Below, one piece after another: positions 3,978-40,884 of a DNA stretch of 64,000 nt; positions within the stretch are counted from its first letter, which is position 1, and every line of letters starts with the position of its first letter. The stretch is from Escherichia coli (lineage in GTDB: Bacteria > Pseudomonadota > Gammaproteobacteria > Enterobacterales > Enterobacteriaceae), in the NCBI RefSeq assembly GCF_003334335.1, contig NZ_QOWQ01000017.1. One strand, given 5' to 3'. The position numbers and the translations under genes are program-made. Under the pieces are notes generated by a model. The model had not been told where the DNA came from. It saw only the letters and a program-made list of their open reading frames with translations, and did no database searches.

Positions 3978-4218
3978 CTTTTCTGTTTTTTTACGGGTAA
4001 GCCGCAACGACCATTGACAGACCCGGGCAGGCTGATATTCTCCGCAGCCAGACTTTTTCCGCCAGACACGACTTTGTAGAAATTGTTTTACAAAAATGGC
4101 GATGCAATCTGCGGCGCGGGGTGGGATGATAGCCCACTTTCGAAAGCCGATTCGGCGACAATTGTCCCGAAATCGCCTCTGGTTCAGGTATACTGACAGA
4201 CCATTTTTATCTATTTGA

Positions 4219-5055: not shown

Positions 5056-6957
5056 ATGAAACTACAGAACTCTTTTCGCGACTATACGGCAGAGTCCGCG
5101 CTGTTTGTGCGCCGGGCGCTGGTCGCCTTTTTGGGGATTTTGCTGCTGACCGGCGTGCTTATCGCCAACCTGTATAATCTGCAAATTGTTCGCTTTACCG
5201 ACTACCAGACCCGCTCTAATGAAAACCGCATTAAGCTGGTGCCTATCGCGCCCAGCCGCGGCATTATCTACGATCGTAACGGTATCCCTCTGGCCCTCAA
5301 CCGCACTATCTACCAGATAGAAATGATGCCGGAGAAAGTCGATAACGTGCAGCAAACGCTGGACGCTTTGCGCAGCGTGGTAGATCTGACCGATGACGAT
5401 ATTGCTGCATTCCGAAAAGAGCGCGCACGTTCACACCGTTTCACCTCTATTCCGGTGAAAACTAACCTGACCGAAGTACAAGTAGCTCGCTTTGCCGTCA
5501 ATCAGTACCGTTTTCCGGGTGTCGAAGTTAAAGGCTATAAACGTCGTTACTATCCTTACGGTTCGGCGTTGACCCACGTCATCGGCTATGTGTCGAAAAT
5601 CAACGATAAAGACGTCGAACGCCTGAATAATGACGGCAAACTGGCCAACTATGCGGCAACGCATGATATCGGTAAGCTGGGCATTGAGCGTTACTATGAA
5701 GATGTGCTGCACGGTCAGACCGGTTATGAAGAGGTTGAAGTTAACAACCGTGGGCGTGTTATTCGCCAGTTAAAAGAAGTACCACCGCAAGCCGGACACG
5801 ATATTTACCTGACGCTGGATCTCAAACTCCAGCAATATATTGAAACGCTGCTGGCGGGTAGCCGCGCAGCTGTGGTAGTCACCGATCCGCGTACAGGTGG
5901 GGTGCTGGCGCTGGTTTCCACGCCTAGTTATGACCCAAACTTGTTTGTTGACGGTATCTCCAGCAAAGATTATTCCGCCTTGTTGAACGATCCGAATACA
6001 CCGCTGGTGAACCGCGCCACACAGGGGGTTTATCCTCCCGCGTCTACAGTTAAACCCTATGTGGCGGTTTCGGCATTGAGCGCCGGGGTGATCACGCGCA
6101 ATACGACGCTGTTTGACCCAGGCTGGTGGCAACTGCCAGGTTCGGAAAAACGTTATCGTGACTGGAAAAAATGGGGCCACGGGCGTCTGAATGTCACAAG
6201 ATCGCTGGAAGAATCTGCGGATACCTTCTTCTATCAGGTGGCCTACGATATGGGGATCGATCGCCTCTCCGAATGGATGGGTAAATTCGGTTATGGTCAT
6301 TACACCGGTATCGACCTGGCGGAAGAACGTTCCGGCAACATGCCTACCCGCGAATGGAAACAGAAACGCTTTAAAAAACCGTGGTATCAGGGTGACACCA
6401 TTCCGGTTGGTATCGGTCAGGGTTACTGGACAGCGACCCCAATCCAGATGAGTAAGGCACTGATGATCCTGATTAATGACGGTATCGTGAAGGTTCCTCA
6501 TTTGCTGATGAGCACCGCCGAAGACGGCAAACAGGTGCCATGGGTACAGCCGCATGAACCGCCCGTCGGCGATATTCATTCCGGTTACTGGGAGCTGGCG
6601 AAAGACGGTATGTACGGTGTTGCTAACCGCCCTAACGGTACGGCGCATAAATACTTTGCTAGCGCACCGTACAAAATTGCGGCGAAATCCGGTACCGCTC
6701 AGGTCTTCGGTCTGAAAGCGAACGAAACCTATAATGCGCACAAAATTGCCGAGCGTTTACGTGACCACAAACTGATGACCGCCTTTGCGCCATACAACAA
6801 TCCGCAAGTGGCTGTCGCCATGATTCTGGAGAACGGTGGTGCGGGTCCGGCGGTTGGTACACTGATGCGCCAGATCCTCGACCACATTATGCTGGGTGAT
6901 AACAACACCGATCTGCCTGCGGAAAATCCAGCGGTTGCCGCAGCGGAGGACCATTAA
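5056..6957 (+). CDS. mrdA: Penicillin-binding protein 2 (elongasome transpeptidase)
   Basis: 633-aa ORF with N-terminal TM anchor and transpeptidase STVK motif. Confidence 0.95.
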
Positions 6958-29305: not shown

Positions 29306-29716
29306 ATGTCCAGACCAACTATCATCATTAACGACCTGGATGCCGAACGCATCGATATTCTGCTGGAGCAACCCGCCTATGCTGGTTTGCCAATCGCCGA
29401 CGCGTTAAACGCAGAGTTGGATCGCGCCCAAATGTGTTCGCCAGAAGAGATGCCACACGACGTGGTGACAATGAACAGCCGGGTTAAATTCCGCAATCTT
29501 AGCGATGGCGAAGTGCGTGTGCGCACGCTGGTGTATCCGGCAAAAATGACCGATAGCAATACTCAGCTTTCCGTTATGGCTCCGGTAGGTGCCGCACTGC
29601 TGGGGCTGCGCGTTGGCGATTCCATTCACTGGGAACTTCCGGGCGGCGTTGCAACCCACCTTGAAGTGCTGGAACTCGAATACCAGCCAGAAGCTGCTGG
29701 CGACTACCTGCTTTAA
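29306..29716 (+). CDS. rnk: Regulator of nucleoside diphosphate kinase (GreA/GreB-like)
   Basis: 136-aa ORF. Confidence 0.9.
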
Positions 29717-29946
29717 TCCCATCTGCACAAGCGATAACTCGCTTTGCCCAGAGGATGCACTCGCATCCTCTTTACGCAAAATCAGCAATTTTTCCTGGTT
29801 CTCACTGTTCACTTTTGCTGCAAAATTATTCCGTTTCGTTTGTGGGAATAACCATGGCAGAAGCATTTTACATCCTGATAGGATTTCTGATTATGGCGGC
29901 GATTATCGTCATGGCTGTCCTTTACCTCGAAAACCACTCCTGACGA

Positions 29947-31185
29947 TCATATTGTTCCCCCCGGCATCGCATTCACCAGACCTGAAACCGCCTTCTGCGC
30001 CGCCTCTGCGCTTTGTGCACCGGGTACCAGAATCACCTTACGGCACTCCTCTTCACGTTTTTCGAAAATCTCATATCCCCGGGCGGCCTCTTCAAACGGC
30101 ATATAGTGGGTAACAATTTCTTCTGGTTTCAGTAATCCTTTCTCAATTAACGGTAATAATTCTCCCAGCCATGCGTGAACGTGGGTCTGTCCCATTTTAA
30201 ACGACAACCCTTTATCAAAGGCGTCGCCAAACAGGAAACCGTGAATAAATCCAGCGTAGACGCCCGGTACGCTAACAATGCCGCCACGCCTGACCGCCGC
30301 AATACACTGACGCAACGCTTTACCGCTGCTGCCCTCCAGTTTCAGGTTAGTCAGCACCGTTTCCGTGGTGCTGCCTTTCGCTTCAAAACCGACGGCGTCT
30401 ATTACTGCATCCACGCCCCGGTGACCTGCCGTTTGTTCAATAATTGACTGTGCCGGATCGCTGTCTTCATCAAAATTAATCGGGATCGCGCCGTAGCGGT
30501 CGGCGGCGAAATGCAAGCGGTAGGGATGATGATCAACAACAAAAATCTGTTCCGCACCGAGCAACCGTGCACAGGCGATTGTCAACAATCCCACAGGACC
30601 AGCACCATAGACTGCAACGCTTGAACCTTGTTGGATCTGCGCATTTTTTGCTGCCTGCCATGCCGTTGGCAGAATATCAGAAAGGAAAAGCGCTTTATCA
30701 TCTGAAAGCAAAGGCGGTACTTTAAACGGCCCCACATTCCCTTTAGGGACGCGGACATATTCCGCCTGCCCACCAGGAACGCCGCCATACAGGTGACTAT
30801 AACCAAACAATGCCGCTGGAGCTGGTATCTGTTTTTTATTGAGCGCAGCGCCTTTACCCGCATTGGTATTTTCGCAGGCGGCATATTGTTGCAATCGACA
30901 GAAAAAACAGTCGCCACAAGCAATGACGAACGGAATTACCACTCGGTCGCCTTTTTGCAAATTTTTTACGTCCTTTCCGGTTTCAACTACTTCCCCCATA
31001 AATTCATGACCAAAAATATCGCCATGTTTAACCTGAGGTATTTTGCCTCGATAAAGATGGAGGTCAGAGCCACAGATCGCCGTTGCCGTAATACGCAGAA
31101 TAATATCATCTGCCTGTTCAACGCCCGGATCGGGAACATTTTCTACCTGAACGTGATGTGGGCCGTGATAAGTCAATGCTTTCAT
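29947..31185 (-). CDS. ybdR: Zn-dependent alcohol-dehydrogenase-like oxidoreductase
   Basis: 412-aa ORF with GHEFMGEV zinc-ADH motif. Confidence 0.88.
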
Positions 31186-39795: not shown

Positions 39796-40884
39796 ATGCC
39801 TCACAATCCTATCCGCGTGGTCGTCGGCCCGGCTAACTACTTTTCACATCCAGGAAGTTTCAATCACCTGCACGATTTTTTCACTGATGAACAACTTTCT
39901 CGCGCGGTGTGGATCTACGGCAAACGCGCCATTGCTGCGGCGCAAACCAAACTTCCGCCAGCGTTTGGACTGCCAGGGGCAAAGCATATTTTGTTTCGCG
40001 GTCATTGCAGCGAAAGCGATGTACAACAACTGGCGGCTGAGTCCGGTGACGACCGCAGCGTGGTGATTGGCGTCGGTGGCGGTGCACTGCTCGACACCGC
40101 GAAAGCCCTCGCCCGCCGTCTCGGTCTGCCGTTTGTTGCCGTTCCGACGATCGCCGCCACCTGCGCCGCCTGGACACCGCTCTCCGTCTGGTATAATGAT
40201 GCCGGACAGGCGCTGCATTATGAGATTTTCGACGACGCCAATTTTATGGTGCTGGTGGAACCGGAGATTATCCTCAATGCACCGCAACAATATCTGCTGG
40301 CGGGGATCGGTGACACGCTGGCGAAATGGTATGAAGCGGTGGTGCTGGCTCCGCAACCAGAAACGTTGCCGCTAACCGTGCGACTGGGGATCAATAATGC
40401 GCAAGCCATTCGCGACGTCTTGTTAAACAGTAGCGAACAGGCGCTGAGCGATCAGCAAAATCAACAGTTAACGCAATCATTTTGCGATGTGGTGGATGCT
40501 ATTATTGCTGGTGGTGGGATGGTTGGTGGTCTGGGCGATCGTTTTACGCGTGTGGCGGCAGCTCATGCCGTGCATAACGGTCTGACCGTGCTGCCGCAAA
40601 CCGAGAAGTTTCTCCACGGCACCAAAGTCGCCTACGGAATTCTGGTGCAAAGCGCCTTGCTGGGTCAGGATGATGTGCTGGCGCAATTAACTGGAGCGTA
40701 TCAGCGTTTTCATCTGCCGACTACACTGGCGGAGCTGGAAGTGGATATCAATAATCAGGCGGAGATCGACAAAGTGATTGCCCACACCCTGCGTCCGGTG
40801 GAGTCCATTCATTACCTGCCAGTCACGCTGACACCAGATACGTTGCGTGCAGCGTTCAAAAAAGTGGAATCGTTTAAAGCCTGA
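39796..40884 (+). CDS. ybdH: Glycerol-dehydrogenase-family hydroxycarboxylate dehydrogenase
   Basis: 362-aa ORF, iron-containing ADH family (GVGGGALLDTAKA). Confidence 0.88.
   Translation: MPHNPIRVVVGPANYFSHPGSFNHLHDFFTDEQLSRAVWIYGKRAIAAAQTKLPPAFGLPGAKHILFRGHCSESDVQQLAAESGDDRSVVIGVGGGALLDTAKALARRLGLPFVAVPTIAATCAAWTPLSVWYNDAGQALHYEIFDDANFMVLVEPEIILNAPQQYLLAGIGDTLAKWYEAVVLAPQPETLPLTVRLGINNAQAIRDVLLNSSEQALSDQQNQQLTQSFCDVVDAIIAGGGMVGGLGDRFTRVAAAHAVHNGLTVLPQTEKFLHGTKVAYGILVQSALLGQDDVLAQLTGAYQRFHLPTTLAELEVDINNQAEIDKVIAHTLRPVESIHYLPVTLTPDTLRAAFKKVESFKA

Follow-up and report, generated by a model that had tools for sequence, protein, structure and literature searches.

yldA, a known small-protein gene downstream of rnk in Escherichia coli, and its possible kinship with yoaI

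Introduction

Does the 230-bp gap between rnk and the convergent gene ybdR in Escherichia coli encode a protein, and if so, which one and with what role? The question was raised by an initial annotation, made from the raw sequence, of a 64,000-nucleotide stretch of E. coli DNA (the window). It pointed to an ATG at 29854 that opens a 29-codon hydrophobic frame in this gap, likened the product to small membrane proteins with a single transmembrane segment, and allowed that the frame could have arisen by chance. The start codon, the frame and the size of the gap are all borne out by the sequence. The features of the locus are listed in Table 1.

Table 1. Features of the rnk-ybdR region, with positions in the window
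Feature	Position	Strand	Basis or remark
rnk	29306..29716	+	upstream same-strand neighbour in every ortholog examined
GC-rich hairpin aGAGGATGC-ACTC-GCATCCTCt, then TTT	29750..29771	+	RNA fold; downstream of rnk
Diverged haplotype block, contains yldA	~29774 to at least 31405		left breakpoint immediately 3' of the rnk hairpin
tgtgggaataacc	29841-29853	+	directly precedes the yldA ATG
Weak Shine-Dalgarno-like GGGAA	29844..29848	+	5 nt upstream of the ATG; putative function
yldA coding sequence, 29 codons + TGA	29854..29943	+	sequence/ORF, RefSeq annotation, NF041476, PF23689
yldA ATG	29854-29856	+	opens the frame
Conserved core A-I-I-V-x-A-V-L-Y-L-E, codons 16-26	29899..29931	+	allele pN/pS; motif also in unconstrained profile search
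Codon of invariant Glu26	29929-29931	+	ends the conserved core
yldA TGA	29941-29943	+	
Gap between the yldA and ybdR stops	29944-29946		3 nt
ybdR	29947..31185	-	convergent; found in roughly half of the other genera as well as in the K-12-type haplotype

Identity of the reading frame

The frame reads MAEAFYILIGFLIMAAIIVMAVLYLENHS and is identical to E. coli K-12 b4734 (YP_009518757.1, WP_000796528.1). In MG1655 b4734 lies at 643330-643419, and its position between rnk and ybdR is the same as that of the window ORF. In a megablast search with positions 29700-29960 against 5,426 complete E. coli genomes, the DNA matches of 100% identity carry the RefSeq label 'yldA: small membrane protein YldA'. 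Two curated family models cover the product from end to end. The NCBIfam equivalog NF041476 (YldA) aligns residues 1-29 to profile positions 1-29 of 29 with 57.9 bits against a cutoff of 45 (E 7e-16), and the Pfam family PF23689 ('YldA-like') matches over model positions 1-29 of 29 with 72.8 bits (i-E 1.4e-20), a score obtained with a 33-aa N-extended form of the protein. The 29-aa sequence in Table 1 of VanOrsdel et al. (2018, PMC6001520) is likewise identical to the window product. In that study YldA was detected in MG1655 grown in rich medium, by immunoblotting of a chromosomal C-terminal SPA tag. The epitope-tagging check that had been proposed for this frame is therefore already in the literature. 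For yldA, the literature yielded no initiation-complex peak from ribosome profiling.

The 29-codon ORF is, with a probability of about 0.9, the known gene yldA (b4734), which is translated into a protein of 29 residues that is predicted to cross the inner membrane once. The reading of the frame as a genuine gene for a single-TM small membrane protein has held up, on the strength of the annotation, the published SPA-tag detection, the family models and the codon-level conservation described below. The implied novelty has not: the ORF had not been recognised as an annotated gene, and it is on record as yldA, b4734. The gene is named, its product was detected in 2018 and curated family models for it exist, so that nothing is left of its value as a discovery. 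The case does show that a reader of raw sequence is able to pick out a genuine small-protein gene.

Locus layout and expression

Just downstream of rnk, the RNA is predicted to fold into a GC-rich hairpin that is probably a leaky rnk terminator. Only three T's follow the stem; for this reason the hairpin was not flagged in a terminator scan, and read-through from rnk is plausible. Scans of both E. coli haplotypes (see below) found no sigma-70-type promoter upstream of yldA and no canonical terminator after it. Inspection of the upstream alignment by eye gave nothing convincing in the way of PhoB, PhoP or sigma-E type sites. [quoted passage not shown] Expression of yldA would probably proceed via read-through of the weak hairpin or via an unrecognised promoter, and in the K-12 haplotype it would overlap convergent ybdR transcription.

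The stem of the rnk hairpin (29750-29771) has the same sequence at 28 of the 29 orthologous enterobacterial loci, and its loop is variable. Terminator stems usually covary and do not stay identical.

A purine block (GGGGA, GGGA or GGAA) occupies the same position in most orthologs, 5-8 nt upstream of the start, and corresponds to the weak Shine-Dalgarno-like sequence of the window. A conserved translational-control hairpin was considered for this region and rejected; the ribosome-binding region is paired in many single folds, with partners that differ from one to the next. RNAalifold, applied to 29 orthologs over positions -62 to +15, returned no consensus structure, and a search of 29600-30100 against Rfam gave no match at E up to 1. 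At the 3' end, the convergence with ybdR is as first described, and the distance of 4 nt then given to the ybdR stop becomes 3 nt between the two stop codons, a difference in counting.

Conservation across the Enterobacteriaceae

A profile search of 1.84 billion representative proteins identified 49 relatives, with a near-invariant AIIVxAVLYLE motif and a mostly basic tail. A degenerate DNA pattern built on this motif and applied to one genome per species matched 55 loci, 30 of them in the Enterobacteriaceae: Escherichia, Citrobacter, Enterobacter, Lelliottia, Phytobacter, Buttiauxella, Huaxiibacter, Pseudenterobacter and one further isolate. All 30 are syntenic, lying downstream of rnk and followed, where the DNA reaches, by convergent ybdR, uspG or both. 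Genera that lack ybdR still keep yldA. Salmonella and Klebsiella gave no match to the degenerate pattern, a result that does not amount to absence of the gene.

The other 25 matches fall in unrelated phyla and look like chance, not YldA. Among them, a peptide of the form GA[VI]xAV[IL]Vx[AS]VLY[LF]EE recurs in matches from Bacteroidota, Planctomycetota and Butyricicoccus MAGs (loci L005, L016, L024, L039, L041 and L057), in frames of varied length. The peptide probably comes from some conserved gene read antisense or out of frame, and it is treated here as unrelated to YldA.

A length of exactly 29 codons is common to all 29 complete copies from the Enterobacteriaceae, which represent at least 8 genera. 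They start with ATG, or with GTG in Buttiauxella, and several have an in-frame stop 8-13 codons upstream of the start, which supports the annotated yldA start. Columns 16-26 of the ortholog set are restricted by the search pattern, which accounts for part of the invariance in them; the residues E3, I7 and F/Y11 lie outside the pattern and are conserved too. Among the 29 orthologs the numbers of variable columns at the three codon positions are 17, 16 and 28, and the mean pairwise pS is 0.61 versus a pN of 0.22 (pN/pS ~0.35). Stops interrupt the other two frames of the same strand in most of the 29 orthologs, frame +1 in 27 and frame +2 in 21 of them. Judged from these substitution patterns, YldA is under purifying selection at the protein level. 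Frame conservation and a comparison of synonymous with non-synonymous change were among the checks proposed with the initial annotation, and both come out in favour of a protein-coding gene, with the frame kept and pN below pS across the enterobacterial orthologs.

Two haplotypes in E. coli

Two yldA alleles between them account for approximately 5420 of the 5,426 complete E. coli genomes, and the gene is single-copy (median of 1 place per genome). They belong to two deeply diverged haplotypes of the region from rnk to uspG. The K-12-type haplotype, with ybdR, is present in 3603 genomes. In the remaining haplotype (1816-1818 genomes) ybdR is missing and yldA, encoding MSEALGITAFYIFIAAIIVAAVLYLEQRW, is followed directly by uspG; the corresponding region of this haplotype is represented by locus L002, 2575-2872. 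The two haplotypes are identical up to the hairpin just after rnk and diverged from there on. The ybdR-less allele is also found in E. albertii, E. marmotae and cryptic Escherichia.

The alleles share 49 of 90 nucleotides (46% nucleotide divergence) and 14 of 29 residues, with no indel and with the frame kept. Differences at the three codon positions number 10, 9 and 20, and over codons 14-26 pS is 0.87 versus a pN of 0.115. The helices differ at most N-terminal positions, and the tails read ENHS and EQRW. These alleles constitute a natural series that could be used for experiments in E. coli.

In one 67-aa database protein (P0031), codons 1-19 of the ybdR-less allele are fused in frame with upstream sequence of the K-12 type, followed by the complete K-12 allele. 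Its structure suggests a recombinant haplotype junction in some assembly.

Hydrophobicity and topology

The 2.5-kb stretch around yldA contains 41 ORFs of at least 20 aa, so a length of 29 codons is by itself within chance expectation. The composition is not. The six frames of the 64-kb window hold 373 ATG-initiated ORFs of 20-60 aa, and of these yldA has the highest Kyte-Doolittle mean over its best 19 residues, at 2.97 versus 2.61 for the runner-up. Its hydrophobicity exceeds chance, in agreement with the early remark that the composition is unlike that of flanking intergenic sequence. The runner-up, MWWMLLLLVVGWLVVWAIVLRVWRQLMPCITV (32 aa; 40487-40585, + strand), lies inside hcxA (ybdH) on the same strand and is presumably a chance ORF in an alternative frame.

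These results bear on the proposal that yldA itself is a chance open frame whose annotation has been propagated by similarity. The abundance of short ORFs nearby, the weak ribosome-binding site and the lack of a detected sigma-70-type promoter upstream would fit such a frame, as would the poor correlation between sORF annotation and detection reported in PMC6001520. Set against this are the detection of the tagged protein in the same study, a fixed length in at least 8 genera, codon-periodic substitution with pN well below pS, a frame kept through 46% divergence, and a hydrophobicity unmatched among the small ORFs of the window. Together these refute the chance reading, and we give it next to no credence.

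Within the membrane, YldA probably adopts an N-out/C-in orientation. This topology is predicted because the N-terminus is acidic (M-x-E) and the tail mostly basic, and it matches the predicted topology of YoaI, discussed below. The tail is E-R-H-W in 22 of 27 distinct YldA orthologs. The ENHS tail of K-12 YldA contains no Arg or Lys, which makes the positive-inside argument weaker for this allele. No fractionation data for YldA were found in the literature.

Convergent transcription and antisense readings

With 3 nt between the stops, transcripts of ybdR probably run antisense through yldA, and the pair has been described as a convergent excludon (PMC12288877). This arrangement raises two alternatives to a conventional protein function. 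Small size and hydrophobicity, as in YldA, resemble those of type I toxins, and YldA might accordingly be a toxin-like membrane peptide held in check by antisense RNA from convergent ybdR transcription. Overexpression of YoaI, a relative of YldA, delays growth (PMC11429745), which would be in keeping with such activity. The gene, in turn, behaves unlike a toxin locus, being single-copy and strictly syntenic, neither mobile nor duplicated, and its SPA-tagged product is made in rich medium. No toxin family was matched in NCBIfam. No dedicated antisense partner with linked conservation was found; ybdR, the sole candidate source, is often absent where yldA stays, as in the 1816-1818 E. coli genomes and many genera without it, so the proposed antitoxin is dispensable. 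A toxin of this type is very improbable.

The second alternative places the function in the RNA, with transcription through yldA interfering with ybdR and the peptide incidental. The frequency of the convergent overlap among MG1655 RNA-seq samples speaks for such interference; selection on the amino-acid sequence and retention of yldA in genomes without ybdR speak against an incidental peptide. We regard a purely RNA-level role as no more credible than a toxin. Interference at ybdR-yldA may exist in addition to a protein role; it cannot account for the conservation. Because of amino-acid-level selection, single-copy strict synteny and retention without ybdR, the data agree poorly with all three of these readings, whether chance ORF, type I toxin or pure excludon.

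The same tail-to-tail arrangement is seen at yoaI, which is 0 nt from yeaK in E. coli and Cedecea (yoaI at 6079-6183 of locus L003 and 4001-4138 of locus L060, respectively), as compared with the 3 nt between yldA and ybdR (window 29941-29949). Both pairs are given as convergent excludons in PMC12288877. The layout common to the two genes may be a coincidence or a shared regulatory arrangement.

Relationship to YoaI

All 12 YldA sequences compared with the NCBIfam models (both E. coli alleles and ten diverse orthologs) match NF041475, the YoaI equivalog, as their second-best model, with 19-35 bits and E-values of 1e-8 to 1e-3. The alignments have a constant offset of +5 and reach the C-terminus in 12 of 12; in 10 of 12 they place YldA 3-29 on YoaI 8-34. 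The NF041475 cutoff of 45 bits is not reached by the window allele (22.5 bits) or by any of the 11 other sequences (19-35 bits). By these profile scores YldA is a relative of the YoaI equivalog family and not a member. None of eight natural small membrane proteins used as controls matches the YldA or the YoaI model.

In the reverse direction, E. coli YoaI (from K-12) scores weakly on the YldA model NF041476, at 14.1 bits, and matched no Pfam family, PF23689 included. YoaI of Cedecea reaches 38.4 bits on the YldA model, and a PF23689 match for it is also precomputed. The identity of this Cedecea protein as YoaI rests on the NCBIfam model (68.9 bits) and on synteny between yeaL-like and yeaK-like genes. 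A protein homology search with the 45-aa Cedecea YoaI returned the query itself alone. A custom HMM made from 27 distinct YldA orthologs gives YoaI 16.5 bits and 9 natural small membrane proteins at most 2.4 bits each, and the YoaI score was reached by 0 of 5000 full shuffles and by 0 of 5000 core-only shuffles in which both glutamates were fixed.

The +5 register places YldA Val22 and Glu26, both invariant in YldA, on YoaI Val27 and Glu31, and the position of YoaI Ser26 is occupied by the invariant Ala21. In YoaI, Ser26, Val27 and Glu31 are invariant, and the substitutions E31A and E31Q abolish binding and activation of EnvZ (Vellappan et al., PMC11429745). YoaI is PhoB-regulated and induced by low Mg2+, and YldA is not mentioned in the YoaI paper (PMC11429745). 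We lean towards a shared ancestry of YldA and YoaI, with a superfamily pattern E-x-L-I-I-T...V-x-[A/S]-V-L-x-[L/I]-E-R suggested by the aligned sequences, in a comparison limited by the fact that similarity arises by convergence more easily in a short hydrophobic helix than in soluble proteins.

Proposed function

A literature search found no experimental account of a function, a partner or a membrane localisation for YldA, and none of the neighbouring genes encodes a membrane protein that would point to a partner. The resemblance to YoaI offers a tentative model. In this model the YldA helix would associate laterally with a larger inner-membrane protein, as that of YoaI does. Its partner would most plausibly be a sensor histidine kinase, with which YldA would make contact at the cytoplasmic face, between the invariant juxtamembrane Glu26 (the counterpart of YoaI Glu31) and basic residues of the kinase, and thereby tune signalling. 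By analogy with YoaI, binding of this kind, dependent on Glu26, is conceivable but falls well short of being the expected outcome. A more specific version, in which YldA is an unrecognised YoaI paralog whose Glu26 serves to modulate a two-component sensor kinase, EnvZ or a different one, is a little more speculative still; if it holds, the two alleles could give E. coli phylogroups different signalling set-points.

The main rival to kinase modulation is an accessory role, in which YldA would belong to a transporter or respiratory complex as an additional subunit, or would stabilise it, much as in AcrZ-AcrB, KdpF-KdpABC, CydX-CydAB or MgtS-MgtA. Transporters and membrane enzymes are the partners of most of the single-pass small proteins that have been characterised in E. 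coli. Kinase targeting is just one of several classes of action in a review (PMC12648545), and the YldA helix is mostly unlike that of YoaI, so that the kind of partner need not match. Opposed to this are the neighbours of yldA, which are rnk, ybdR and uspG, with no adjacent gene for a transporter or membrane complex in any genus, and the fact that YoaI, the only detectable relative of known function, targets a kinase. An accessory role of this kind is a serious but doubtful alternative, about on a level with YoaI-like binding through Glu26.

Comparison with known systems

The general logic of a small membrane protein that binds and modulates a sensor kinase, as proposed for YldA, is known from MgrB-PhoQ, SafA-PhoQ and MzrA-EnvZ (PMC11429745, PMC12648545). 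MgrB, SafA and MzrA are unlike YldA in that they have 47-127 aa and periplasmic or cytoplasmic domains, and no sequence similarity between them and YldA was detected. Compared with the YldA already on record (K-12 b4734; UniProt YLDA_ECOLI; NF041476; PF23689), the window gene shows no difference of any kind and is yldA itself.

The closest comparison is with YoaI (E. coli b1788, 34 aa; NF041475). YoaI differs in having 5 extra N-terminal residues and a helix that departs from the YldA helix at most positions. Its gene is found at the yeaK-yeaL locus in E. coli and Cedecea, whereas every genome examined has yldA downstream of rnk. Both proteins consist of a single-pass helix between two glutamates 23 positions apart, and in both the glutamate that is functional in YoaI lies 4 residues from the C-terminus. 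They have in common E3/E8, I7/I12, F11/F16, A15/A20, V19/V24, V22/V27, L23/L28 and E26/E31 (YldA/YoaI). T8/T13 and R27/R32 are shared with YoaI in most other YldA orthologs, the K-12 allele having L8 and N27. Each of the two genes lies tail-to-tail against its neighbour. This specific and reciprocal relationship, which includes the residue required for EnvZ activation in YoaI, gives a testable functional lead for YldA.
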